Made by a program: the position numbers and the translations under genes | Notes under the pieces: model-generated | The model's database searches: none | What the model was told of the DNA's origin: nothing | What the model saw: only the letters and a program-made list of their open reading frames with translations | Virus record (IMG/VR): IMGVR_UViG_3300005366_000002 | Coordinates: 1 to 64,000 of that record | Reading direction: 5' to 3' (one strand) | Length of the DNA stretch: 64,000 nt | From: a virus | Shown here: positions 6,045 to 21,432 of the stretch, in pieces | Layout of the letters: each line of letters begins with the position of its first letter | Position numbering within the stretch: the stretch's first letter is position 1

Positions 6045-6407
6045 TCAGTGGATGGGCGCGCCGTCGTTGGCCGAACTCGGCAGCGGGGTCACCAGGCCGT
6101 TGTCGGCCAGCGCCTTCTGGTAGCCGAGGTTGAAGCCATGCTGGCGCGTCAGCTCACCGATGGCGGCGTGGCAGTGGTTCATGACGGCCGTCAGGTCCTG
6201 GAGCGCGACGACAGGGTTCTGGTACGTCACCGGCGACACCAGCTTGTGCGCGTCGCCACCGCGAACGCAGAAGCCGATGGTGAAGCCCTGCAGGCCGAAC
6301 AGCGACATCAGCTGCTGGTCGGGAGTGCCAGGCGCACGCATGTGCACCGGGCCGGGAGGGGCAGGAGGAACGGGCGCGGGCGGCGCCGGCGGTTTGTTTT
6401 CGTCCAC
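6045..6407 (-). CDS. Hypothetical protein with Pro-rich N-terminus
   Basis: GTG start with AAGGAG RBS. Confidence 0.65.
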   Translation of the reverse strand: MDENKPPAPPAPVPPAPPGPVHMRAPGTPDQQLMSLFGLQGFTIGFCVRGGDAHKLVSPVTYQNPVVALQDLTAVMNHCHAAIGELTRQHGFNLGYQKALADNGLVTPLPSSANDGAPIH

Positions 6408-6455
6408 GAAGAGACTCCTTGTGTATGCCTTGTCTTTACAGTTTTCGGGGAACCG

Positions 6456-6914
6456 CTATTCACCGATTCTCGCGGTCACCTCACCACGGAGAACAGCGCG
6501 ACGCTGCATCAGCAGGATCCCCAGGTGGTTCTCGCCTTTGCCATCGACCGTACCCCAGAAGAGATCGCCATGCCTGTTCCCTTCCTCGAGATGCGCGTCG
6601 CCGGTGGCGATCAGCCAGCGTGCGAGCTCCGACTTGTCGGCGAACTTGTGGTTGAGGATCGCCTTCATGTAGCCGATCTTCCGCGCGTCCCAGTTCGGAC
6701 GAAGGATCACGCGGTTGCCCATGCGCTTCGCGTCGATGGGTTTCGGCGCCTCGAGGCGGATCCGCTCTTGCTCCGGGAACGTTCGGCACTTCATCGCCTG
6801 ATACGCGTGCTCGGCGGACTTCCAGCGACGCTCCGAGTAGATGAGGACGTGCCCGGTCCAGAAGTTGGAGAGCCACTCGTGCTCGCGGGTGAAGGAGGTG
6901 ATGGCGTCAGTCAT
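6456..6914 (-). CDS. NADAR (YbiA-like) family protein
   Basis: WLSNF, SAEHAYQAMK, KF, LIATGDAHLEEGN..DLFWG, GENHLGILLM. Confidence 0.92.
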   Translation of the reverse strand: MTDAITSFTREHEWLSNFWTGHVLIYSERRWKSAEHAYQAMKCRTFPEQERIRLEAPKPIDAKRMGNRVILRPNWDARKIGYMKAILNHKFADKSELARWLIATGDAHLEEGNRHGDLFWGTVDGKGENHLGILLMQRRAVLRGEVTARIGE

Positions 6915-7161
6915 GGTCGTAAGGCCTCAAGTGGTAGATGCCGGCGGACGTCAGGTCCATTGTGACCATCTGCCCCTTCTTGATGTCCTCGAGGGCGACA
7001 CCAACACGAGGTGCGGGAGGCCTTGCGTTGAGTGCGCGTGTCTGTGACTCGGTGAGGCCTGTCTCCTTGTTGATCAGCTCCGGGAGACGACCGCTAGGGC
7101 CGCGCTTGCGCTCGATGTCTGCGAGGTAGCGATCGACGATGTCGTGGATGAACTTCCGCAT
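6907..7161 (-). CDS. Hypothetical protein
   Basis: Packed in operon. Confidence 0.6.
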   Translation of the reverse strand: MRKFIHDIVDRYLADIERKRGPSGRLPELINKETGLTESQTRALNARPPAPRVGVALEDIKKGQMVTMDLTSAGIYHLRPYDHD

Positions 7162-7162
7162 G

Positions 7163-7570
7163 TCAGATCTCCGTCTGTGATTTCCACGAGGAGACCGCGG
7201 TGATCAGGCAGGTGTTGGTCTCGTTGGGGAAGTGGGTGTAACGCATGAACGGACGACCCTGTGTGTCCTTGTCCAGCGTTCGGATCAGGTGTCGTAGGTT
7301 GTGCGTCCGCATCAGGCCGCAGTAGGTCTCTGGCGTCACCACGTCGAGCACGGTTGTCGCGTCCTCGTCGAAGACCTCGAAGACCTTGGTTGCGATCATG
7401 AGGTCCGTGTAATAGGACGTCAGCTTGAGGTAGTGCTTGACCGGGATGCCGTCCCTGGTCCAAGTGCCGACCTGGCGGTCCGTCACGCCGCAGACGATGG
7501 CGACGTTGTGGACGTGGAGACCGAGGGCCAGCATCAGCTTCGGGAGGACGAAGCGTTGAAGGCAGATCAT
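7163..7570 (-). CDS. Hypothetical protein, possible N-terminal HTH
   Basis: VAIVCGVTDRQVGTW resembles an HTH; AGGAG RBS. Confidence 0.6.
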   Translation of the reverse strand: MICLQRFVLPKLMLALGLHVHNVAIVCGVTDRQVGTWTRDGIPVKHYLKLTSYYTDLMIATKVFEVFDEDATTVLDVVTPETYCGLMRTHNLRHLIRTLDKDTQGRPFMRYTHFPNETNTCLITAVSSWKSQTEI

Positions 7571-7579
7571 GAGCTGCTC

Positions 7580-9145
7580 CTAGTAGGTGATGAGCTTGAA
7601 GCGCGGGCGCGTCGCCGCAACGTAGAGGCACCTGAACGACTCACGCTCATTGTGGTTCGCCAGGATGTCCGCCTGATCGACGAACACGTTGTCGAGCGTC
7701 GTGCCCTGGAGACGATGCACCGTCATGGCGTAGCCGTGCCTGATGTCGTGGAACTTGTTCTTCAGCTCCCAGAACTTGGACCACAGCATCTTCCTGACGT
7801 GCGGGTTCTTCTCCAGCGAGGCCTTGCGGTTCCGCTTATTCAGGATCTCGTTGAGCGACGACGGGTCTTCAGGGACGTAGAGGGTCAGCCACGAGTCGTG
7901 CAACGTGATCGCACGCGCGTCGACAATCCCCTCATCGAACTCGAAGCGACGCTCCGTGATCGCCTTGATCTGGAACTCCTCGTCGACGAACGCGAGGATC
8001 TGACCCTGCTCGCCAATGACAGGCGAGGCCATCATGATCATGTCGCCCTCGTCGAACTCACCCTTGAAGCCAAGGGCTTTGCGGATCACCCGCGTGTACT
8101 CGTCGACCGTCCGGTTGCGCCAGCACGCTACCTTGGTCGTCTTCCAGTCGTCGAGCTTCATGCTCTCGATGGCCCGCATGAACGCAGGCTTGCCGATCAC
8201 GAACACGCCTTCACGACCATCGTTGTCAGCCTCGATCGGGCTGCGCGGGTACCGCTTGTCGACCAGGCACTCACGCAACGTGATCGACAGCTGGAGCAAC
8301 TGGTTGTCGAAGCGCATGACTTCGGTGAGCAGTGCGCGGTCTTCGGGCTCCGGGAAGCCCCACACGATGGACCGCGGTTCCTTCACAGGGTTCAACTGCG
8401 CAGGGTCGCCGACGAACAGGCAGCGCCATCCGAACTCCTCGCAGATGTTCTTGAGGATCTCGGCCATGAACTTGGGGATCATGCCTGCTTCGTCGATCAC
8501 GAGGACCGGCTTGTTCCCCAGGTCAGGGATGCGCTTCATCTCCCCGAGCTCGGTCTTGTCCTCGTTGGTGACCATGCGGAGGCCCAGCAGGCTGTACGTG
8601 GTCTTGCAGGTCGAGCCGAGGAACGCGGACAGGACCTTGGTGGCCTTGTTGGTCGGCGCCGAGAAGTGGAAGTTATAGCCCAGCTCGGCAATCTCCTGGA
8701 GCAGGAAGCTCTTGCCGGTGCCAGCGTAGCCGCGCAGCGTCATGAACGGGCGATCCGAGGACAGCCAGGCCACGATCTTGTCGTAGGCACGGCGCTGGCT
8801 CTTCGTCATCTTCGGACGCTCGGCCTTCTTGACCTCAGGAACCTCGTCCACGTCCTCGTCAGCGGTTGCCATGGCCTTGCCGACCATCTCCTTGACGGCC
8901 AGCTTGACCTCAGGTGTCAGCTTCTGCGCGCGCTCGTCGCCGAGGCCTGGCAGCTCGTTGTCCCAGATCTCGATGAAGCGATCGAGTTGGGCAGACCAGG
9001 CGTGGCGGATCTCTTTGAAGCCTTGGCCTTTGTTGGCCCGCTCGAAGATCACGCACTCGATCAACGCGATCATGTCGTCGAGGTTTTTCTCCTCGTAGAG
9101 CCTGAGGATCAAGTCCAACAGCGCTCGTGGTTCACGATGGCTCAT
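7580..9145 (-). CDS. dda: Dda/RecD-like SF1B DNA helicase
   Basis: GYAGTGKS, APTNKA, IDEAGM, VGDPAQLNPV, YAMTVHRLQGTT, LYVAATRP; start ATG 9145 overlaps the upstream stop. Confidence 0.9.
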   Translation of the reverse strand: MSHREPRALLDLILRLYEEKNLDDMIALIECVIFERANKGQGFKEIRHAWSAQLDRFIEIWDNELPGLGDERAQKLTPEVKLAVKEMVGKAMATADEDVDEVPEVKKAERPKMTKSQRRAYDKIVAWLSSDRPFMTLRGYAGTGKSFLLQEIAELGYNFHFSAPTNKATKVLSAFLGSTCKTTYSLLGLRMVTNEDKTELGEMKRIPDLGNKPVLVIDEAGMIPKFMAEILKNICEEFGWRCLFVGDPAQLNPVKEPRSIVWGFPEPEDRALLTEVMRFDNQLLQLSITLRECLVDKRYPRSPIEADNDGREGVFVIGKPAFMRAIESMKLDDWKTTKVACWRNRTVDEYTRVIRKALGFKGEFDEGDMIMMASPVIGEQGQILAFVDEEFQIKAITERRFEFDEGIVDARAITLHDSWLTLYVPEDPSSLNEILNKRNRKASLEKNPHVRKMLWSKFWELKNKFHDIRHGYAMTVHRLQGTTLDNVFVDQADILANHNERESFRCLYVAATRPRFKLITY

Positions 9146-9705
9146 ACCTCGAAGTTCTCGCGCGTTGGGTTGATGTGGATGGCTCCGTAGACTGGCATGC
9201 ACGTCGCTTTCGCGAGTTGCAGGGGCTGCCAGCCGTAGCCGCAGACGATGATCGGAGTACCAGGCCACCGATGCCAAAGCTCACGCACCTTTTCCAGTTG
9301 AACGTTGGTGGACTGCGCACCAAGGTTGGTCACAACGGTCAAGGTCGGTGGATCTTCACGCCTCTTGGCTGGCACCTCGAACTCTGCCGTGTACCGCTTG
9401 AGTTCGTCGTGATACGAAGCAAACCAGAGCACATCGTGTTGGGGATTCTGCTTCACGTGTTGCTCCACGAGCCAAGCCGCTGCATATTCAGCACGGAGTT
9501 GTTCGTAGGCGGTGAGGATCACCGAGTTCGCGTGAAGAGCTCCACCAGGACGACCCCAGTTCTCAAGGGTCTCCAGTTGACGCTCAGCAGTGATCTTGCC
9601 AGCATCAGCCGGTCGCCATTTGAACTCCGGCTGCCTGAACACAGAGCCGGGAACCGCGTAGCGAACTGCGTGGCGGTCCACACGCACGTTGATTGTGTCT
9701 ACCAT
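9142..9705 (-). CDS. Hypothetical protein between two helicases
   Basis: Translationally coupled to the Dda-like gene; AGGA RBS. Confidence 0.7.
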   Translation of the reverse strand: MVDTINVRVDRHAVRYAVPGSVFRQPEFKWRPADAGKITAERQLETLENWGRPGGALHANSVILTAYEQLRAEYAAAWLVEQHVKQNPQHDVLWFASYHDELKRYTAEFEVPAKRREDPPTLTVVTNLGAQSTNVQLEKVRELWHRWPGTPIIVCGYGWQPLQLAKATCMPVYGAIHINPTRENFEV

Positions 9706-9712
9706 GATCTTC

Positions 9713-11872
9713 CTATTTACCGTTGAGGCGAGCCTTCTTCTGCAAGGCCTCGAAGGCTTTCTTGTGCTTGGCGACAGTCGCCTGCACCCTCGCGGAGTCC
9801 GGACTTGCTTTGAGGCGAGACTCTGCTGTGATGAGTCGCTTGCGCAACTTCTCGAGTTCGTCCCGGTACTGAGGGTCGTACTTGGTCAGCGCGGCCCGCG
9901 TGCCCTCACGCTGGCGAACTACTTGATCTTCGGTGCGAGTAGTCTTGATGTGATGGAACACAGCGAGCTTGGCGCGCCGATGGATCTTGAAACCGTCGAC
10001 ACCTATCTTCGAAGCCAGGAGCTCAGCGGAGGCCTCGTAAGGCACGATCATCAGCACAGGTTCAGTAGCCTTTGGATCACGCAGACTGGTCCGGTACAAC
10101 GTCTGCACCAGGTTCTCGATCGAGTGGTCTTGGTCGATGTCGTAGTCGGGAATCAGAATGTGGTAGACGCTGACCAGCGATGGCCCTGGGTTGAGGGCCG
10201 CCAGGTGCGTGAACGCATTGAGACGATCGTACTTGTTGATCCCGTGCAGGTGTGGCGTCCTCGGCACCGTGAACACAGAGTCGTCCGAGTTCGCGTAGAG
10301 CGCGTACTTCAGCTTCTTCCGCCACAGTTCTGGTACCAACTTGGCGTCCAGGTCGTGCTCACCGTCGTTGAGGTCAGAGTCACTCTTGTCACCACGGAGC
10401 GCCACGTCCCCATGAGCGAGGATGAACCGAACCATGCGCAGATAGCGGACAGACGAAGGGGCCCATCGACGATACGATGCGACGTTGAGAGCCAGAAGAG
10501 ATCGTTGCTTCTCGTTGATCCTCCCCTCCCAGTTCCGGAAGATCGTCGCCGCTTCATCAAGGAGTACCCACAGCGGAGGGATAGCCCACTGGCGAAGCTG
10601 GTTGACCACGCGTTCGTCTTTGGCGATCTTGGTCTTCTTGTCTTCAGTGGCCAGCGCGCGAATCACCTGGTCAATGGACAATGCAGGGTTGATCTCCTCT
10701 TCGATCAGCTCGTGAGCCAGCTTGATCGGGATCACCATGCCCTTGTCGAGCAGGTTGGAGCTCAGCGTGTTCCGGTACGCAGGGTTCACGTTGCCGTAGA
10801 ACTCGTCGCGGAGCAACATCGCGACTTCGATGCGCTCACCTGCGGCGACACGCAGCCTCTCAGACCGGCGTTTGATCTTGAGGAGCGCACCTTTCAGCTC
10901 ACGACCTTCCAACAAAGGCGTCAGCTTGTGACCGTCCTTGTGAAGGAAGTGGTACATCTGCGAGTCCTGGAAGAACGCAGAGGTCAAGATCACCCGCCGG
11001 TAGTTCTCGAAGAGCGACGTCGGCCGCATCACTACCTGGATCGAGATGTTGCCCATGCCCTCCACGTCCTGATACTCCGCACGAGGATCGCTGGAGCTCA
11101 GGATGTAGAGGCTGCCGCGACCAGTGCGCGTGTACTTGTTGAACAGGCGAAGCATGCCCTTCATGTGCTCCGGAAGGAGCGAACGACGAGCCAGCGTGAG
11201 CCCGTGGACCTTGCAAAGGTCGCGAGGACTCATCAACGATTCGACCTTGAAGAGCTTGAAGCGACTGGCCCGCTCACGTGTGTCCTCCACAGGACTGACC
11301 TTGAGGCAGGTCCACATCGACTTCCACTGGTCGCGCGGCACCTTCAGCTCCTGCGAGTGGAGCACGCACTTGCGCGCCTCGTCGAAGATGACGGTCATCC
11401 GCTTGAGCAGCTTGAAGTCACGACCGGTCGCGTCCTGCCGGTTCAGCCGGACGAACGATTCGTGGGTCGTCATCACGACCTGCCCGTCCTCGAGTTCGTG
11501 GGTGCAGTCGTGCGAGAACTCAGCGCGGTAGGTCGTGGCAAGGTAGCGATCACGAGGGATCAGGCCGAACAGGTAGTTGAGGGCCGTCGCAGGCTGATCA
11601 CGTCGAACCTTGTAGCCAGTCTTCGAGAGAGCTGAACCGAGTTCGAACGGATTGCTGACGATCACGACCTTGGATGCCTGCTCAGTTCCGATCACTCGGG
11701 CGATGCGACGGAACGCTTCTGCGAGTAGCTTGGTCGTCGGAGCCACGTAGACCAGAATTCCCTTCCGGTTCTCTGTGATCTGTTTGGCTGCCTTCTGCAC
11801 GAAGTACTCAGTCTTCCCTGCACCCGGCATGGCGTCTATGAACGCAAACTCACGTGTGTTGTGTGTATCCAT
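9713..11872 (-). CDS. SF2-type helicase, putative origin-binding/initiator protein
   Basis: AMPGAGKT Walker A, YVAPT, TTHES, FDEAR, QTLYRTSLR motif VI-like; adjacent to the origin-like region. Confidence 0.7.
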   Translation of the reverse strand: MDTHNTREFAFIDAMPGAGKTEYFVQKAAKQITENRKGILVYVAPTTKLLAEAFRRIARVIGTEQASKVVIVSNPFELGSALSKTGYKVRRDQPATALNYLFGLIPRDRYLATTYRAEFSHDCTHELEDGQVVMTTHESFVRLNRQDATGRDFKLLKRMTVIFDEARKCVLHSQELKVPRDQWKSMWTCLKVSPVEDTRERASRFKLFKVESLMSPRDLCKVHGLTLARRSLLPEHMKGMLRLFNKYTRTGRGSLYILSSSDPRAEYQDVEGMGNISIQVVMRPTSLFENYRRVILTSAFFQDSQMYHFLHKDGHKLTPLLEGRELKGALLKIKRRSERLRVAAGERIEVAMLLRDEFYGNVNPAYRNTLSSNLLDKGMVIPIKLAHELIEEEINPALSIDQVIRALATEDKKTKIAKDERVVNQLRQWAIPPLWVLLDEAATIFRNWEGRINEKQRSLLALNVASYRRWAPSSVRYLRMVRFILAHGDVALRGDKSDSDLNDGEHDLDAKLVPELWRKKLKYALYANSDDSVFTVPRTPHLHGINKYDRLNAFTHLAALNPGPSLVSVYHILIPDYDIDQDHSIENLVQTLYRTSLRDPKATEPVLMIVPYEASAELLASKIGVDGFKIHRRAKLAVFHHIKTTRTEDQVVRQREGTRAALTKYDPQYRDELEKLRKRLITAESRLKASPDSARVQATVAKHKKAFEALQKKARLNGK

Positions 11873-11881
11873 GATACGCGG

Positions 11882-11888
11882 TATTTAC
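11882..11888 (-). promoter_or_regulatory. GTAAATA phage promoter motif
   Basis: About 10 bp upstream of the helicase start; motif recurs across the window. Confidence 0.6.
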
Positions 11889-12239
11889 AGTATTCCGTGG
11901 GCTGCTCAGACAAGACAAACCGTATGGTTGAATTAGCATTAAAGAGAGAAGTAACCATACGGTTTTGCCGTCGGCAACGCAGACGGTAATCACCTCTCAG
12001 TTCATGCATCAGGGTGGGAAGCGCGAAGCGCGCGTCGACAGGCGCGAAGCGCCGGGCGACAGCTAGAACATCAACCCTTCTCCCGAAGCGGGAAGAGAAG
12101 CTGACGATTCCGAGGCTCACGAGAGCGAGAGGCGAAGCCGGTTTGGTGCGAGCCGGACGAAAAACGGTTTGGTGCGACCGTGTGGGTACTTGCCTCTTAC
12201 TTACCGAAGTAGCCACACGGTTTGGCTGAACCGTGAACC

Positions 12240-12246
12240 GTAAATA
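12240..12246 (+). promoter_or_regulatory. GTAAATA phage promoter motif
   Basis: AACCGTAAATA upstream of CDS 12288. Confidence 0.6.
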
Positions 12247-12287
12247 GGTCGGACAGATTTCCAACCCCCACACATGAGGTACTGACA

Positions 12288-12929
12288 GTGGACAACAAGA
12301 CGGCCCGCAAGGCCATGAACAAGCCCGTGATGGCCGCCGACTTCGTGATCGACGCGATGATCGTCGACGAGGACGGCGTGGTCATCGACAAGCTCCCGGA
12401 GTTCGCAAGCTCGATCACCCGCTGGCGCTTCGCCGAGCAGACCAGCCCCTTCGAGGAAGACGACACGTCCGGCGAGGACTTCTCGTTCGACGAGGATGAC
12501 GACACGCTGGGTCCCAACGAGGACTCCGACGGTTCGGAGCTGGTGCCGCCGGAAGAGAGCACACTCGAGGCTCCGGACGAGGACATCGCCGAGGAGCGCG
12601 TGCTCATCCTCGAGCACGAGGTGACGGCCGCTGCCTTCAAGGAGCTGTTCAAGAAGGTCTACGAGGATCGCGAGAGCACGAACATGCTGGCGGTCGTCAT
12701 CACCTACTTCGTGATGGAGGACTCGCAGCGCCTCGACGTGTTCTCGCACGTGTTCGTCGGCACCTCGTTCACTCCGGACGAGGTCTCCGGCTCCCGCGGT
12801 GCTCGAGGCCGCCTGCTCGTCCGCACCTGCATCGACCCGTTCAAGGTCCAGACGTTCAACAGCGGTGCGGCCGACAAGGCCATCAAGGACCTGATGCGCG
12901 AAGACACGGCGAGCACGGAGGTCCACTGA
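12288..12929 (+). CDS. Hypothetical acidic protein
   Basis: GTG start with GAGG RBS; coupled to the sbcD-like gene. Confidence 0.8.
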   Translation: MDNKTARKAMNKPVMAADFVIDAMIVDEDGVVIDKLPEFASSITRWRFAEQTSPFEEDDTSGEDFSFDEDDDTLGPNEDSDGSELVPPEESTLEAPDEDIAEERVLILEHEVTAAAFKELFKKVYEDRESTNMLAVVITYFVMEDSQRLDVFSHVFVGTSFTPDEVSGSRGARGRLLVRTCIDPFKVQTFNSGAADKAIKDLMREDTASTEVH

Positions 12930-13969
12930 TGAGCCGAGCCCTCCCGGAGCTCGTCGGCATCGGCGACCTCCACCTGACGGACAGCGCGGGCAAGGGCGGG
13001 CTCAGCGCGTACATCGAGGATCACGACGATCACGTGGCCCAGCTCGTGATCGACCAGCCGCTGGCCTATGCGCGCCGCAAGGGCATCCGCCACATCCTGC
13101 TCTACGGCGATCTCTGCGAGAATCCGCGCATGAGCTACGCTGGGCACCTGGCGCTGGGCCGCATCCTCAGTGAGCCGTTCAACGCGAAGACCGGTGAGCT
13201 GTTCGAGTTCCACATCATCCTCGGCAACCACGACATGTTCGACGTGGAGCCGTCGGCGGGTCACTCCATGGACCTGGTGAAGCTGTGGGGCCGGCCGAAC
13301 GTGAAGCTCTACGAGAAGCCGACGAACGTGAAGGTCGCAGGGCTTCCCGTGCGGTTCCTCCCGTTCCCGCACCAGTCGTTCCATCCCACGGCGCTCAACG
13401 TGGCGCACGTGGACGTCGCTGGGTCCAAGACGGACAGCGGTCGCCTCAACGAAGGCGAGCACCTCAGCGCTTCCAAGGCGACGTGCGTGATCGGCCACAT
13501 CCACACGTCGCAGCGCGTGCGGAACTCGCACTACTCCGGCACGCTCTACCAGACCAATTTCGGTGAGAGCATGGAGAAGTTCTTCCACCACATCTCGTTC
13601 GACGACGGATGGGTGATCGAGAAAGTGCCGGTCAAGCCCACGTACCGCCTGCACACGGTCACCGTCGAATCTGCGGCAGACCTGAAGGGCGTGCCGTCCG
13701 GCAAGCACGATCTGGTAAAGCTGATCCTAGTGACCTCGAAGGTCAAGAGCGTGGACTACCAGCACCTCAACGTGGTCAAGACGGTGCCGGTCAAGAACAG
13801 CGCGGAAGCCGTGCTGGCTCAATTCGAGGAGATCGGCGAAGGTCAGCAGATCGAGATCAGCCCGACCGAGTTCTTCAACGAGTGGGTCGACCGCCAGACC
13901 CGCCCTGACCCACTGAAGAAGGCAGCGAAGAAGCTGCGTCACCGCCTACTGCAAGGAGTTGCCAAGTGA
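12929..13969 (+). CDS. SbcD/Mre11/gp47-like metallophosphoesterase nuclease
   Basis: GDLH, GDL, GNHD, AH, GHIH motifs; YSGTLYQTNFGE. Confidence 0.88.
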   Translation: MSRALPELVGIGDLHLTDSAGKGGLSAYIEDHDDHVAQLVIDQPLAYARRKGIRHILLYGDLCENPRMSYAGHLALGRILSEPFNAKTGELFEFHIILGNHDMFDVEPSAGHSMDLVKLWGRPNVKLYEKPTNVKVAGLPVRFLPFPHQSFHPTALNVAHVDVAGSKTDSGRLNEGEHLSASKATCVIGHIHTSQRVRNSHYSGTLYQTNFGESMEKFFHHISFDDGWVIEKVPVKPTYRLHTVTVESAADLKGVPSGKHDLVKLILVTSKVKSVDYQHLNVVKTVPVKNSAEAVLAQFEEIGEGQQIEISPTEFFNEWVDRQTRPDPLKKAAKKLRHRLLQGVAK

Positions 13970-14220
13970 TCACCTCTACCTCCACGCTCGAGATCAACCA
14001 GGTCATCTGGATGGTTGCCATTCGACGCCACAACCCGGCGTCGATCAATCCTCCGGTGGAGCGCGTGCGGATCGTTGTCGTTCCGAAGGAGGACGAGTCC
14101 TCGCTGTGGGTCGTCGACGACAACGGTCGCGACTTCAGTGTCGATCGCGAGCGACTGTTCATGACCTGGACCGAGGCTGCCAGGTTCGTCACCAACGAGA
14201 TCGAGAACGGGAGAATGTGA
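13966..14220 (+). CDS. Hypothetical protein
   Basis: GTGA overlap with upstream gene. Confidence 0.65.
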   Translation: MITSTSTLEINQVIWMVAIRRHNPASINPPVERVRIVVVPKEDESSLWVVDDNGRDFSVDRERLFMTWTEAARFVTNEIENGRM

Positions 14221-14546
14221 TGCGCGCCCTCTTCATGGCCTCCAACCTGTACCCCTGCGCCCGCATCTGGGTCACGGACGAGAAGCGTAAGCGGACCTAC
14301 AAGGTTCACCAGGCCTCGGACCCTCAGGTCCCGGACTACGTGTCGGTCGGGCACGCGTTCCCTTCCCCAGAGGAAGCGGCGTCGCTGACGATGGCGATGC
14401 TGCTGGCCCGTCACAAGAAGCTGATGGACGAGGCAGAAGTCGTCGAAGCCCAGATGCTGAAGACCGTCGAGGCCATGCGTGCGGCCCGCAAGCAGATCGA
14501 GGACGATGCTGCCCAAGGGCTTGACCAGTCCCAGCGGATGAACTGA
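14220..14546 (+). CDS. Hypothetical protein
   Basis: TGATG coupling; start reassigned to 14220. Confidence 0.65.
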   Translation: MRALFMASNLYPCARIWVTDEKRKRTYKVHQASDPQVPDYVSVGHAFPSPEEAASLTMAMLLARHKKLMDEAEVVEAQMLKTVEAMRAARKQIEDDAAQGLDQSQRMN

Positions 14547-14548
14547 CC

Positions 14549-14929
14549 ATGCTCGAGTACCCCTACCCATTCGGGGACAACGTGCCCCAAGCCGGTGTGA
14601 CCTCGCTGGGTCTCCCTTGCGAGTGCAACTGCCACAAGATGCCTGGCGTACTCCACGTCATGGCCTGCTGCCAACTACCCATCAAGGAGCTCCGTGTGAC
14701 CCCCACCAACATCCCCGTCGTCTACCCCTTCCTCTGCGGCTCCGAGTCCCGTCCTATCGGGACCTGGTTGGGTTTCCCTACCAAGGAGAAAGCCGAGGCC
14801 CACAAGGTCATGATGGACAGCAAGATCGACACCTACGACATGGAGGGCGGCGGTGGTTGGGACCGTGCGACCTGGCCGTCCCGTCCCCAGCCGTGGGTCG
14901 TCCTGCCGAACCCGGAGTTCAAGGCATGA
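14549..14929 (+). CDS. Hypothetical Cys-containing protein
   Basis: CECNCH...CC; packed in operon. Confidence 0.6.
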   Translation: MLEYPYPFGDNVPQAGVTSLGLPCECNCHKMPGVLHVMACCQLPIKELRVTPTNIPVVYPFLCGSESRPIGTWLGFPTKEKAEAHKVMMDSKIDTYDMEGGGGWDRATWPSRPQPWVVLPNPEFKA

Positions 14930-15889: not shown

Positions 15890-18800
15890 ATGCTCGAAAA
15901 GACCATTACCTATGCGGACCAGAATCCGCGTAGCTGGAACCTGACGTTCCCGATCGACGCCGACTGGAGCACGCAGAAGAAGCGCGTGCTCGTCGTGCTC
16001 CAGACGGTCGATGGACGTGACCTGAAGGAGGAGGGCCTGCTGAAGCACAAGCTGGTTCGCACTGCCTTCACCGAGGCGATCAAGCTGGGCCGCCAGTTCG
16101 CGCGTGCCCAGAACGAGAACCTTGGCGACTTCGGCCTGGCCGTCGTCAACTTCAACGCCTTCCGCCACCTGCACATGAAAGAGCAGGCCAAGGCGGACGC
16201 CGAGGCGGAGTTCAAGCTCCGCATGCAGAAGATCATCAAGAAGCTGAACCCGACGCACATCTTCTTCTCGGGAGACGTGTCGAAGCTCTACCCGGTCAAG
16301 CATGCGGATCTCAAGAACGGATGGGTCCACGAGATCGACGGCCGCAAGGTCACGTCGACCGTGGACTTCGCACGTCTGCTCGAGAAGCAAGGCGTCTACG
16401 CCAACCTGTTCGGCTTCTGGTGCCGACACCTGGCGAACCTGCTGAACGGCCGACTGCCCTTCAACCTCAAGGACCTCCAGCCGAAGCCGCGTCTCGTCGA
16501 CACGATCGCCCGCTTCGACAAGATGATGGCCGAGTGGGACAAGTCCGCCGAGGCCGACGAGGACACGGCGATCGACACGGAATGCCGCAACCTCACGGTG
16601 ACGCAGAACAAGCTGTTCACCATCCAGATGGCGTTCACCCACGACCCTCTCGTGGGCTACGTGCTGCCGGTCGACCACCCGCACGAGGACAACCCGTTCA
16701 CCCCGGACGAGCGCAAGTACATCAAGCGCGAGCTGCAGAAGCGGTTCGCTGACAAGGACCGCAAGGGCCGGACCATCATGTTCAATGGTGCGTTCGACCT
16801 GCGGATCCTTCGCAAGGCCCTGAAGCTGCCTATCATCTACCTACCGGTCTGGGAGATCATGGCCGGCGAGCACCTGCTGGACGAGAACGTGTCGTCGCTG
16901 CGCTCGTTGGGCATCAAGGGCGCTGGTGGCCTCGCAGGCACCCTGTGCTCCATGGGCAACGACTTCTACCTGCAGGAGTCCGGGTTCACCAAGGCGGATC
17001 GTGCGACGGTCGCCTCCGTGAGCCCCAAGGACCCGGACTTCCTCCGCTACGGCGCGATGGACGTAGTCTCGCTGGTTGCCATGAAGGACGTGCAGATCAA
17101 GCGCTCTGCCTTCCAGACCATCAGGGGCCGCAACTACCGTCCGTACTTCAGGACTCACATGCTGTACCAGATGAGCGACACGGTACACCAGCTGAGCCAC
17201 CTGAAGGAAGCCGGGTCCATGGTGGACCTGAAGTACCTGAAGAGCCTGACCAAGCCGGACTCCGTGCTGGCCAAGGCCATCGACGAGCTGGGCGACAAGT
17301 TCAAGACCTTCCCCGAGGTCCGGGAAGCGAATCGTCAACTGCTCGGCGACACCGGGTTCAAGGCCAAGAGCCTGTTCTCGTTCGGTGCCAAGGCCAGCGG
17401 CGACAAGTCGACCGGCGGCTCCGACTCGGTGTTCGGTCAGTGGATGTTCTCGTTCACGAAGGCAGCGCACAAGGCTAAGCTGTTCTTCGACATCATGGGC
17501 TATGAGGCGATCAACAAGACGGCTGAAGGCGTGCCGTCGGTCGACAAGGAGTTCATCGAGACCTACAAGGACCGCAACTTCCTGATCTCAGACTACGGCG
17601 AGTTCCAGGCCGCGTCCAAGATGCTATCGACCAACGTCAGGGGCTACCTCAAGCTCTTGCTGCGGACGGCAGACGGACGCTTCGACGACCACCTGCGATC
17701 CGACGTCATCTTCTTCGATGTGGACACGGGCCGCTTGGCTTCGCGCAGCCCGAACCTCCAGAACATCCCGAACCGTGGGAAGCTGTCGAAGATCATCAAG
17801 GAAATGTTCATCACGCCGGACGGCCACCTGCTGATCCGGTTCGACTACTCGGCACACGAGGTCAAAGGCTGGTCGCTGGTAAGCGGCGACAAGGTCCTGG
17901 CCCAGACCTTCAAGGTCGGCCAGAAGCTGCGGCAGGAGTGGATCAAGGCCTACCCGTCCAAGGTCATCAAGGACAAGGATGGCAAGGACGCGAAGCTGCC
18001 GCTGCCCAAGGAGCAGGTCGAGGCCTACGAAGCAGAGCTCAAGGGCTGCAAGAGCAAGAAGCGTGAGGCGTGGCTGATCGCCGTGCTGGCGACCAACAAG
18101 CTGGCCGCACGCCTCAAGAAGGAAGGCGACGTTCACATTCAGAACGTCTTCCGGTTCTTCCAGAAGTGGGTCGAGAAGTCCGATCCGCTGCGTGACGCGA
18201 TCAAAGCGGTCGTGTTCGGCACGATCTACGGCAAGTCCGCAGCGACCTTGGGTCACGACACCAAGAAGGCAGAGCTGGACGCGCTGAAGGAGAAGATGGG
18301 CGTGGCCTACAAGGCCGGTGACAAGGAGGCACTGGCCGCCCTCGAGGAGCAGTACACGGCCCTCATCGAGGAAGACCGCGAGGACTACGCGCAGAACATC
18401 ATCGACAAGATGTTCAACGAGTTCCGTGCTGGCCATGCGTGGATCAAGGACATGAGCCGACTGGCCGAGGAAGAGCAGTACGTGTATTCGCCGATCGGCC
18501 GCATCCGCCACCTGTTTGCTACGATCACGAAGGACAAGACCATCGTGAACCGGCAGATCCGCCGTGGCATGAACGCGCCGATCCAAGGCTTCGCCTCGGA
18601 GATCGCGGTGAAGGCCTCGCGTCTCCTGCTCCTCGACTACTACAAGAACCAGGACAGGCTGAAGAAGATGCTGGGCATCGACGCGTCGGAGAAGCTGCCC
18701 GTTCGCTTCAACCGGATCGTTCACGACGCGTCGTACTTCACCGTGCCTTACGCAATGGTCCTGCCATTCATCCACATGCTCCAGTACGACATGACCTACG

Positions 18801-19126
18801 GGATCACCAAGGCCTACGACGAGCAGTTCAAGTTCAAGTTCACCGTGGAGCCGGAGATCGAAGTCGAGGTGGGCGTCAAGGACACGAAGTCGAAGAAGTG
18901 GTCGTGGGCCATCCCCGAGCTGCTCCAACACCTCAGCGCATCGGTGAAGGAAGGGATCGAGGCCGGCTACCTGACCGAGAGCTACGAGGACATCATGGCA
19001 AAGATCACGGCTCCCTGGGAGTCGGAGAAGTGCCGTGCGTTCCTCAACAAGAACTGGCCGCTGCTAAACGTCGACCTCGAAGAGGAGATCAAGGTGGCGA
19101 CCGAGGCCTTCCTGGAGGAAGCATGA
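15890..19126 (+). CDS. polA: Family A DNA polymerase with 3'-5' exonuclease and degenerate UDG-like N-terminal domain
   Basis: ExoI DTE, ExoII FNGAFD, ExoIII YGAMD; TGRLASRSPNLQNIP; motif A DYSAHE; motif B KAVVFGTIYG; NAPIQG; motif C VHDA. Confidence 0.95.
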   Translation: MLEKTITYADQNPRSWNLTFPIDADWSTQKKRVLVVLQTVDGRDLKEEGLLKHKLVRTAFTEAIKLGRQFARAQNENLGDFGLAVVNFNAFRHLHMKEQAKADAEAEFKLRMQKIIKKLNPTHIFFSGDVSKLYPVKHADLKNGWVHEIDGRKVTSTVDFARLLEKQGVYANLFGFWCRHLANLLNGRLPFNLKDLQPKPRLVDTIARFDKMMAEWDKSAEADEDTAIDTECRNLTVTQNKLFTIQMAFTHDPLVGYVLPVDHPHEDNPFTPDERKYIKRELQKRFADKDRKGRTIMFNGAFDLRILRKALKLPIIYLPVWEIMAGEHLLDENVSSLRSLGIKGAGGLAGTLCSMGNDFYLQESGFTKADRATVASVSPKDPDFLRYGAMDVVSLVAMKDVQIKRSAFQTIRGRNYRPYFRTHMLYQMSDTVHQLSHLKEAGSMVDLKYLKSLTKPDSVLAKAIDELGDKFKTFPEVREANRQLLGDTGFKAKSLFSFGAKASGDKSTGGSDSVFGQWMFSFTKAAHKAKLFFDIMGYEAINKTAEGVPSVDKEFIETYKDRNFLISDYGEFQAASKMLSTNVRGYLKLLLRTADGRFDDHLRSDVIFFDVDTGRLASRSPNLQNIPNRGKLSKIIKEMFITPDGHLLIRFDYSAHEVKGWSLVSGDKVLAQTFKVGQKLRQEWIKAYPSKVIKDKDGKDAKLPLPKEQVEAYEAELKGCKSKKREAWLIAVLATNKLAARLKKEGDVHIQNVFRFFQKWVEKSDPLRDAIKAVVFGTIYGKSAATLGHDTKKAELDALKEKMGVAYKAGDKEALAALEEQYTALIEEDREDYAQNIIDKMFNEFRAGHAWIKDMSRLAEEEQYVYSPIGRIRHLFATITKDKTIVNRQIRRGMNAPIQGFASEIAVKASRLLLLDYYKNQDRLKKMLGIDASEKLPVRFNRIVHDASYFTVPYAMVLPFIHMLQYDMTYGITKAYDEQFKFKFTVEPEIEVEVGVKDTKSKKWSWAIPELLQHLSASVKEGIEAGYLTESYEDIMAKITAPWESEKCRAFLNKNWPLLNVDLEEEIKVATEAFLEEA

Positions 19127-20463: not shown

Positions 20464-21432
20464 GTGGACGATCGCCGACTGAATCACGTGATTCAGGAGC
20501 TGAACAACTACAGCGGTCCCAAGAAGAAGCTGGCCAGCTCCACGCTGGTCTCTTGCCCGTACCACAGCGAGCGCACGCCCTCTGGTCGGATCTTCCACGA
20601 CGTGAAGACCAAGTCCCCAGGCTTCTTCAAGTGCTACGGCTGCGGCAAGAAGGCCAAGTGGGACGAGGTGGCACCACTGCTGGGCCTCAAGCCCTACAAG
20701 TGGACCAAGCCGGCTGACCAGTACGCGCAGTCACTGCGCCACGAGGACGAGGAGAAGAACAAGATCAAGAAGATGGAGTTCTCCGACATCCCGCGCGACA
20801 AGCGGTGGCGGACCATCAAGACCAATCTCCTGATCGCCCTCGGGGCCAAGCGCGTGATCACGATCTACGAGGGCGGCTATCGCACCAAGTCGATGGTCTA
20901 CCTGCCGGTCTTCATCAAGGGCACGCAACGCGGGTTCATCCGAGCACGCATGCAGAAGGAGAAGGACAAGCCGTCCTACCTGAATAGCCCAGGGCCGTGG
21001 TCGCAAGACCTCGGGCTCTTCCCTTACGACTTCGCGATCCGCAAGAACCCGAAGACGATCGTGCTCGTCGAGGGGCCTCGGGATGCGCTGCGGCTCCTCA
21101 GCTACGGGATCCCGGCCATCGCGATCCTCGGCACGCAGTCCTGGTCGGCACGCAAGAGCCGCATGATCGAGCTCACCGGTGCCGAGCGTGTCGTGCTCTG
21201 CATGGACGGGGACGACGCCGGGAAGAAGGCCATCGAGCTCATCGAGCCGCAACTCGAAGGGCTCATCAACACGACTGTCTTCGACCTGTGTGGTCCTGAC
21301 AGTCCCTACGACCAGTTTGCCGACGAAGACGAACCCAGCAAGGTCGCCAAGGCCGCTGGCGTCGAGCTCTGGGATCCGGGCAACATGCCCCTCAACAAGG
21401 TCAAAGAGCTGAAGGCGCTCTGCATGGCCTGA
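20464..21432 (+). CDS. DNA primase (zinc finger plus TOPRIM)
   Basis: CPYH..ERTPS..FKCYGCG zinc finger; VLVEGPRD; MDGDDAG. Confidence 0.9.
   Translation: MDDRRLNHVIQELNNYSGPKKKLASSTLVSCPYHSERTPSGRIFHDVKTKSPGFFKCYGCGKKAKWDEVAPLLGLKPYKWTKPADQYAQSLRHEDEEKNKIKKMEFSDIPRDKRWRTIKTNLLIALGAKRVITIYEGGYRTKSMVYLPVFIKGTQRGFIRARMQKEKDKPSYLNSPGPWSQDLGLFPYDFAIRKNPKTIVLVEGPRDALRLLSYGIPAIAILGTQSWSARKSRMIELTGAERVVLCMDGDDAGKKAIELIEPQLEGLINTTVFDLCGPDSPYDQFADEDEPSKVAKAAGVELWDPGNMPLNKVKELKALCMA

Follow-up and report, generated by a model that had tools for sequence, protein, structure and literature searches.

Where a phiRSL1-like jumbo phage begins to copy its DNA is the question raised by a 415-bp gap at positions 11873-12287 of the viral record IMGVR_UViG_3300005366_000002. 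The window analyzed here is the first 64 kb of this 104,105-bp viral contig, for which CheckV gives a completeness of about 44%. PolA of the contig is 44-47% identical to PolA of Burkholderia phage BCSR5, Ralstonia phage phiRSL1, and Burkholderia phages BcepSauron and BcepSaruman, and the contig therefore belongs to a jumbo phage of the phiRSL1/BcepSauron-like kind. Literature searches found no described origin for phiRSL1 or its phage group. A 2026 review of jumbo phages is without the phrases "replication origin," "origin of replication," and "replication initiation" (PMC13282480), and in view of this silence the start of DNA synthesis in large phages appears essentially uncharted.

The gap separates two diverging genes, one encoding a superfamily 2 (SF2) helicase (9713-11872, minus strand) and the other a 213-amino acid open reading frame (ORF) (12288-12929, plus strand), which bears out an earlier remark that the coding strand flips at this locus. 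The remark came from an inspection of the letters without database searches (the sequence-only reading), which had predicted a replication origin recognized by the helicase. We find that the gap is a real, conserved, single-locus cis-acting element. The prediction stands insofar as this conserved locus has the formal anatomy of an origin and lies in a replication module; the GTAAATA motifs that had been counted as part of the origin fall away from it. The gap is the best candidate so far for the replication origin of the phiRSL1-like phage family. Tentatively, and with a little less than an even chance of being right, we read it from sequence comparison as a replication-initiation control region, which would combine a candidate primary origin with a divergent promoter region that autoregulates the flanking replication operons.

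Boxes Confined to One Locus Flank the Least Stable DNA of the Contig

The left part of the gap holds a perfect 13-bp inverted repeat exactly where it had been reported. This inverted repeat A consists of a left arm, the inverted box AAACCGTATGGTT at 11917-11929, and a right arm, the direct box AACCATACGGTTT at 11953-11965, which is the perfect inverted copy of the left arm; relatives have arms of different sequence at the same place. The direct boxes CGGTTTGGTGCGA at 12139 and 12165 and CGGTTTGG at 12218 were likewise found as claimed. They belong to a box array on the plus strand (12138-12235) with direct copies at 12138-12156, 12164-12182, and 12217-12235 and start spacings of 26 and 53. To the earlier list can be added a partial inverted box at 12176-12186, which pairs with 12213-12221 to form another inverted repeat derived from the box, termed inverted repeat B (ACCGTGTGG at 12176, CCACACGGT at 12213, spacer about 28 nt). 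Three or four further boxes are thus found 170-300 bp to the right of inverted repeat A, the last of them adjoining the right promoter.

The repeats, hairpins, and motifs of the locus are far beyond chance. The CGGTTT core, which had been described as common to the boxes, is present in five copies in the gap against 0.07 expected from its rate in the genome. The longer pattern CCA[CT]ACGGT (CCAYACGGT) has four copies in the 415-bp gap and none in the other 103.7 kb of the contig, and counting whole and partial boxes together gives six copies in the gap and none elsewhere in 104 kb. The gap therefore has at least three copies of one site confined to one locus, as in iteron-type origins, together with inverted boxes flanking an AT-rich spacer, as in oriS-type origins. 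The 104 kb contain only about nine perfect inverted repeats of at least 11 bp with a spacer of up to 40. Outside the gap, the intergenic ones are G+C-rich, have short loops, and resemble terminators, and three with long spacers are located inside genes.

The spacer of inverted repeat A (11930-11952) is 23 nt long, has a G+C content of 30%, and carries a conserved TTAAAGA on the plus strand at 11939-11945. By nearest-neighbor stability, no 40-bp window of the 104-kb contig is less stable than the spacer with the edges of its arms (11927-11966), and the least stable 25-bp and 60-bp windows also fall at this locus. The homologous spacer of BcepSauron is the fifth least stable 40-bp window of 262 kb, and the gap containing it is the second least stable 200-bp window of that genome; the phiRSL1 spacer ranks fifth to seventh for low stability in 231 kb. 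A TTAWAGA-like motif in the same orientation is found in the spacers of L012, L003, L004, and L010 (relatives introduced below), BcepSauron, and phiRSL1, the variants among lineages being TTAAAGA, TTATAGA, TTAAAAGA, TATAGA, and CTTAAAG.

The Boxes Are Exchanged as Part of a Replication Cassette

The locus was compared with L012, an 8.6-kb contig from a relative, by sliding identity along the blastn alignment. Closer relatives were not found in scans of viral contigs with SbcD or with the hairpin pattern. Window DNA at 6300-8830 and at 12230-14720 is about 97% identical to L012, and between these flanks is a mosaic cassette (8830-12230) that is 60-80% identical or not alignable. At the protein level, the 213-amino acid ORF and SbcD are 99% identical to their L012 counterparts, a 187-amino acid ORF is 81% identical, and the SF2 helicase is 62% identical. 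The 3.4-kb cassette (2490-5950 in L012) covers the boxes, the SF2 helicase, the 187-amino acid AAA+-like protein, and the N terminus of a Dda-like helicase. Its left end falls within the gene of the Dda-like helicase, directly behind an N-terminal domain of about 100 amino acids that is not homologous: the body of this helicase is 95% identical to that of L012, and the first 100 or so residues (8830-9145) have no detectable similarity.

All boxes are replaced in L012 at the same positions (CCAYACGGTTTGG in the window, CTACAGAGAAT in L012). The CTACAGAGAA-type boxes of L012 stand at equivalent places, and its two right-hand copies are 51 bp apart, so that this distance is 51-53 bp in both phages. 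The proposed link between boxes and helicase gains from this comparison, in that box sequence changes together with the helicase-encoding cassette. Since the boxes were swapped along with the cassette, their reader would most simply be encoded in the same cassette. The complete difference between window-type and L012-type boxes in phages that are otherwise 97% identical also provides a natural swap with which the reader protein can be identified.

Not everything in the exchanged part of the gap has changed. A hairpin block (12013-12065) and a second block (12090-12120) are nearly identical to L012 despite the replacement of the boxes, and the hairpin block is more conserved than the neighboring coding sequence. 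The retention of this block while the boxes were swapped indicates that the hairpins are under a constraint on sequence or structure that is independent of box specificity.

The Layout Recurs Upstream of Homologous Helicases

Loci of helicase relatives were collected and combined with the annotated records of BcepSauron and phiRSL1, giving about eight lineages (L012, L003, L004, L005, L007, L010, BcepSauron, and phiRSL1) whose helicases range from 62% to 22% identity. Upstream of the homologous helicase there recurs a non-coding gap of 380-830 bp that faces SbcD or the 213-amino acid ORF. It contains an inverted repeat of 11-15 bp around an AT-rich spacer of 23-39 nt, more copies of the same box, and divergent promoters, leftward TTTACAGT and rightward ACCGTAAATA. 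Mini-hairpins with a GNA loop recur as well, with the purine loop mostly on the same strand. The box sequence differs in every lineage, and a YGTAW core is common to all, which suggests homologous readers with shifted specificity.

Complete genomes allowed the confinement of the boxes to be followed beyond the contig. The 12-mer box of phiRSL1 has three copies in that genome, all in the homologous gap (204,434-204,969), even when one mismatch is allowed. Both copies of the BcepSauron 12-mer box are in the homologous gap at about 111,657-112,351.

Two structural peculiarities were seen among the relatives. L007 (3461-3479/3725-3743) and L010 (3525-3550/3750-3775) contain perfect inverted repeats of long range, with arms of 19-22 nt and, between them, 200-245 nt of the gap, mini-hairpins included; these long arms could form a large cruciform or the closing stem of an RNA, and nothing equivalent was seen in the window. 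L003 and L004, whose helicases are about 50% identical to that of the window, both keep a hairpin GCCC-TTCG-GGC with a cUUCGg-type loop beside the helicase promoter, on the strand opposite to the helicase message.

Promoter-type Motifs Frame the Gap

GTAAATA motifs had been described as facing outward on both sides of the origin. Their positions are correct (11882-11888 on the minus strand and 12240-12246 on the plus strand), but they are a promoter-type motif of the phage family and not origin elements. The motif of the helicase operon, AATACTGTAAATACC (11876-11896, minus strand, with GTAAATA at 11888-11882), ends 9 nt short of the ATG at 11872. A Shine-Dalgarno sequence is missing, and this arrangement hints at a leaderless message. 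Motifs at 9720, 11888, and 21911 all end 8-9 nt before an ATG without a Shine-Dalgarno sequence, again suggestive of leaderless messages. The leftward TTTACAGT is kept in six of seven relatives, the phiRSL1 counterpart being at 204,457 on the minus strand. The motif of the rightward operon, GAACCGTAAATAGG (12232-12252, plus strand, with GTAAATA at 12240-12246), ranks fourth in the contig by position weight matrix. From about 12230 onward, the right promoter and leader are 100% identical to L012, and phiRSL1 has GACCGTAAATAC at 204,933 on the plus strand as the counterpart.

[GT]TAAA[TG]A is found at 15 sites of the contig; each of them points in the direction of the surrounding genes, and most lie 8-75 nt ahead of a start codon. 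Fourteen sites with the extended consensus GAACnGTAAATAG stand far above all other matrix matches, ten of them in the window (6439, 9720, 11888, 12240, 15861, 20137, 21911, 25025, 29914, and 47097) and four in the rest of the contig (79942, 85548, 95268, and 98906). The complete phiRSL1 genome has GTAAATA co-oriented with the coding strand at 35 of 35 sites, two of which frame the homologous gap. Co-orientation of the GAACnGTAAATAG motif with downstream genes is therefore genome-wide in both the contig and phiRSL1, and a scan for sigma-70 promoters returned 0 sites. With the outward GTAAATA motifs being of this family type, the gap is probably at least a divergent promoter region. As a third promoter the spacer TTAAAGA was ruled out, being absent from the top 40 matrix matches; it stays a conserved motif only.

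These observations bring in the strongest rival of the origin, namely that the gap is purely transcriptional, that the boxes are operators for a cassette-encoded autoregulator of both divergent replication operons, and that hairpins and spacer serve promoter architecture, DNA bending, or looping rather than replication. We regard this as possible, if rather unlikely. It agrees with the consistent orientation of the GTAAATA-type motifs here and in phiRSL1 and with their framing of the gap, and the boxes adjoin both promoters in the window and in L012; in phiRSL1 a box falls between the helicase promoter and the start codon. Inverted repeats are typical of operators, and promoters, too, are places where the least stable DNA would be expected. 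However, half-sites 36-51 bp apart from center to center would be unusual for operators, and 350 bp with six boxes and a conserved one-strand hairpin block that adjoins no promoter exceed the needs of two promoters. The conservation of the hairpin block above that of adjacent coding sequence and the lack of a promoter score for the spacer motif with the extended matrix likewise speak against operators as the whole explanation.

One-strand Mini-hairpins and the Folding of the Gap

Four mini-hairpins were confirmed in the places assigned to them: GCGC-GAA-GCGC (12021-12031), GGCGC-GAA-GCGCC (12041-12053), TCCCG-AAG-CGGGA (12081-12093), and GGC-GAA-GCC (12131-12139). The first two, both GCGCGAAGCGC hairpins, turn out to form a 21-nt tandem repeat (12021-12062), an addition to the earlier description, within the plus-strand block 12013-12065 that is nearly identical to L012 inside the otherwise 60-80% identical cassette. 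The hairpin at 12041 extends to 12034-12060 through an outer GTCG/CGAC stem (GTCG/ACA/GGCGC-GAA-GCGCC/GGG/CGAC), and the loop of this second hairpin changes from GAA in the window to GGA in L012. GGCGC-GAA-GCGCC is also present in L005, with a different outer stem. The third hairpin is contained in CTTCTCCCG-AAG-CGGGAAGAG (12077-12097, plus strand), at the equivalent of which L012 has CCAGCC-CACAC-GGCTGG. Because a different hairpin occupies the same place, the change at 12077-12097 is fully compensated. The conserved block GGGAAGAGAAGCTGACGATTCCGAGGCTCAC (12090-12120, plus strand), to which no role is assigned, is identical to L012 at 29 of 31 positions. The fourth hairpin, also on the plus strand and also found in L003, adjoins the first direct box.

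The hairpins have a clear strand bias. GAAGC occurs six times on the plus strand of the gap and not at all on the minus strand, and the plus strand carries all the stable GNA mini-hairpins (12021, 12041, 12081, and 12131), as in priming signals of the G4/ssiA type. The contig has 23 mini-hairpins of the form C-GNA-G with a stem of at least 4 bp, and the gap is their sole intergenic cluster. A second similar element at 91.6 kb was rejected, its mini-hairpin being within a DnaJ-domain gene. That gene (91,255-92,007, minus strand, beyond the window) encodes a 250-amino acid protein with an N-terminal DnaJ-like J domain containing YYQVLGV and KYHPD motifs. GCGAAGC-type mini-hairpins are known from the complementary-strand origin of G4, from ssiA of RSF1010, and from the hairpin promoters of N4, and they bind single-stranded DNA-binding protein (SSB) poorly (PMC13037366, a 2026 review).

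The inner 350 bp of the gap are non-coding, because insertions and deletions relative to L012 are of single bases and not of multiples of three. Small ORFs in the gap were rejected on the same ground, since the 1-nt insertions and deletions break every reading frame. A search of the gap for tRNA genes found none.

A structured non-coding RNA or a long leader in the center of the gap, with its start close to the spacer motif or at 12204, where there is a weak leftward promoter-like site, and with the hairpins as RNA elements, seems improbable. The gap as a whole does fold much better than its shuffles, whichever strand is taken (z = -5.2 for plus and -4.9 for minus), hairpin changes are compensated, in L003 three small hairpins are enclosed by a closing stem (z = -3.4), and the perfect arms of 19-22 nt in L007 and L010, 200-245 nt apart, would suit an RNA. 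The spacer TTAAAGA also resembles the promoter variant of the L005 helicase. Against this, the conserved hairpin block alone shows no such advantage over shuffles (z = +0.3 for plus and -1.7 for minus), folding of the central block in five lineages revealed no shared multi-helix RNA architecture, and Rfam 15 gave no match at the gathering score (best match Transposase-2 RNA, 20.7 bits versus 42.7, E = 0.17). Furthermore, the spacer site is outside the top 40 matrix matches, and no terminator follows on the plus strand. That both strands fold equally well is expected of palindromes at the DNA level, and folding without strand preference fits DNA-level hairpins at least as well as RNA.

That the mini-hairpins are single-strand promoters of the N4 type, or entry sites for a phage-borne RNA polymerase in early infection, is very improbable: in having 5-bp stems and GAA or GGA loops they agree with the promoter type of the N4 virion RNA polymerase (PMC13037366), the 5-7-bp stem and 3-nt purine loop being seen in GGCGC-GAA-GCGCC here and, with the loop switched, in GGCGC-GGA-GCGCC in L012, but the hairpins occur at one locus only and not before several early operons, and no RNA polymerase gene was seen among the scanned ORFs of 104 kb, the contig being about 44% of the genome.

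Cumulative GC Skew

Cumulative GC skew had been proposed as a check on the origin. An extremum does coincide with the locus, the global maximum of the contig being at 12,693, 0.4 kb from the gap. However, this extremum is not separable from a strand effect, because the coding strand flips at the same place, and the polarity is inconsistent between phages; we therefore count the result neither way. The phiRSL1 skew has its global maximum at 206,274, 1.3 kb from the homologous gap, and is largely independent of gene orientation, whereas the extremum nearest to the BcepSauron gap is the global minimum at 104,847, 7 kb away. In bacteria, the cumulative GC-skew maximum marks the terminus. The phiRSL1 skew rises through regions of plus-strand and of minus-strand genes. 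The coding strand is richer in C than in G in the phage of the contig and G-rich in BcepSauron, and a link between the skew and the 7-deazaguanine cluster of the phage is conceivable.

Proteins of the Cassette and the Candidate Box Reader

The SF2 helicase (9713-11872, minus strand, 719 amino acids) is the candidate box reader. The sequence-only reading had proposed a comparison with UL9 of herpes simplex virus and with T5 D2, and none of the tests run showed a likeness to either. Pfam matched it to DEAD at the N terminus only, and a PDB sequence profile search and NCBIfam gave no relative. The AlphaFold2 model (predicted local distance difference test score (pLDDT) 87) has DinG and XPD as its best Foldseek matches. 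Herpes_ori_bp (PF02399) was not matched either in the Pfam scan of the helicase or in a six-frame search of the contig at E values up to 10. In view of the missing Herpes_ori_bp match and the DinG/XPD-like fold, the helicase is not a member of the UL9 family. Its residues most divergent from L012 are 391-420 and a basic helical C terminus (631-719), which are candidate specificity regions. From the co-variation described above it is a possible box reader, and the binder could equally be the 187-amino acid AAA+-like protein or another part of the cassette.

The 187-amino acid protein (9142-9705, minus strand) has a predicted fold closest to the DnaA/DnaC/RFC clade (pLDDT 82), with modest VIA-align Z scores of 9.4 for DnaA domain III, 9.2 for RFC, 8.6 for Hda, 8.4 for DnaC, and 8.2 for IstB. 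Its Foldseek matches are weak, all with E values above 1e-3, and no Walker A motif was seen. It is probably an AAA+-like protein of the initiator/loader kind, to judge from these models. The PHROG family label of this protein, "DNA polymerase," looks like a misnomer. Downstream of it is the gene of the Dda/RecD-like superfamily 1B (SF1B) helicase (7580-9145, minus strand), which matches PHROG 325 at 3e-85. Prediction of a complex between the 187-amino acid protein and the N terminus of the Dda-like helicase gave a score of 0.00, which speaks neither way.

Gene Neighborhood and Sampling

The neighbors of the gap make up a replication module: on the left are the SF2 helicase, the AAA+-like protein with its DnaA/DnaC-like fold, and the Dda-like helicase, and on the right, downstream of the 213-amino acid ORF, are SbcD, PolA (15890-19126), and a DnaG-type primase (20464-21432). 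The 213-amino acid protein has a very acidic middle part and no Pfam, PHROG, or NCBIfam match. phiRSL1 lacks it at the corresponding position and has SbcD immediately facing the gap.

The phage of the contig comes from metagenomes of rhizosphere and soil, and the sequencing runs listed for it include no RNA run. The locus had no Megablast match among phage records, and the contigs of four DNA sequencing runs held only identical fragments and unrelated G+C-rich matches, with no variants. The Logan contigs of one run break on both sides of inverted repeat A (11908-11957), whereas other runs bridge the same sequence; the break probably arose in assembly, from the repeat at low depth.

A Proposed Route to Initiation and the Points against It

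If the gap is a replication-initiation control region, its parts could work together as follows. A protein of the cassette would read the boxes, the SF2 helicase being the likeliest reader and the 187-amino acid AAA+-like protein or the N terminus of the Dda-like helicase the alternatives. Boxes bound on both sides would strain and open the AT-rich spacer, where one or more helicases would enter, perhaps with the AAA+ loader-like protein as an aid. On the exposed plus strand, SSB-resistant mini-hairpins would form and position the DnaG-type primase, much as in the priming signals of G4 and ssiA. The protein bound to the boxes would also cover the -35 regions of both promoters and autoregulate the replication operons, like the Rep proteins of iteron plasmids.

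Several points weigh against an origin. Boxes are located on the -35 regions of the two promoter-type motifs, and the phiRSL1 box is just downstream of the helicase promoter, so that plain operator function explains much of the pattern. The divergence of the cassette could reflect one donor or shared ancestry without co-adaptation, and the comparison with L012 spans 8.6 kb of that relative only. No sequence-specific DNA-binding domain was recognized in the helicase by Pfam, PDB profile, NCBIfam, or Foldseek searches, nor was there a UL9 match. The AT-rich tract is short (23 bp), although it is the stability minimum of the contig. The skew at the gap is a maximum, with terminus-type polarity, here and in phiRSL1 but a minimum in BcepSauron, and it is confounded with the strand switch.

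A more specific form of the origin reading is a swappable specificity module, in which the XPD/DinG-like helicase would read the boxes and hand over through the AAA+ protein without Walker A to the Dda-like helicase, with the mini-hairpins as primase signals. We consider this version unlikely. If it were true, UL9-like logic would have evolved independently in bacteriophages, and the gap would be the first defined origin of a jumbo phage lineage.

The locus is in any case a concrete, testable candidate that is conserved in the cultured phages phiRSL1 and BcepSauron. Should it be an origin, an SF2-helicase-based initiator system would join the phage repertoire, and GCGAAGC mini-hairpins would have a natural role in double-stranded phage genomes. 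Should it be an operator region only, it would still define the promoter motif of the family and an autoregulatory circuit of replication genes.

Comparison with Known Origins

T4 oriF and oriG and the primary origin of T7, which combine a promoter with an unwinding element and are primed by RNA, resemble the locus in that the promoter-like AT-rich motif of the spacer, constant in orientation, points into a structured non-coding stretch beside replication genes. They differ from it in that the spacer motif has no promoter score in the extended matrix of the contig.

Herpes simplex oriS consists of inverted recognition boxes around an AT-rich spacer and is bound by the SF2 helicase UL9. The gap may be a loose analogue, since it too has inverted boxes to either side of a short AT-rich spacer, with an SF2 helicase as the suspected reader. 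However, this helicase has no Herpes_ori_bp match and an XPD/DinG-like fold, the arms are 36 bp apart from center to center, and extra direct boxes are located 170-300 bp away.

The G4 origin and RSF1010 ssiA share with the gap one-strand GNA mini-hairpins of the GCGAAGC and CCGAAGG types, and a DnaG-type primase is encoded by the phage itself. The known signals work on templates that are naturally single-stranded or next to plasmid iterons, whereas the hairpins described here are in double-stranded DNA between box arrays.

The iteron origins (lambda ori with O and P, SPP1 gp38-39-40, and the Rep systems of P1, F, and pSC101) also have repeated boxes adjoining the easiest-to-melt DNA, and inverted box copies overlapping the promoter of the adjacent replication operon. 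They differ in their initiator, a small winged-helix protein rather than a 719-amino acid SF2 helicase, and in a downstream helicase that is DnaB-like rather than SF1B and Dda-like; the boxes of the gap are, moreover, outside the initiator gene. The order of site, candidate initiator, AAA+ loader-like protein, and helicase appears analogous to lambda ori-O-P and SPP1 gp38-39-40. In lambdoid replication modules, boxes and adjoining proteins travel as one exchangeable cassette, and the boxes of the gap and the neighboring proteins likewise form one exchangeable cassette.

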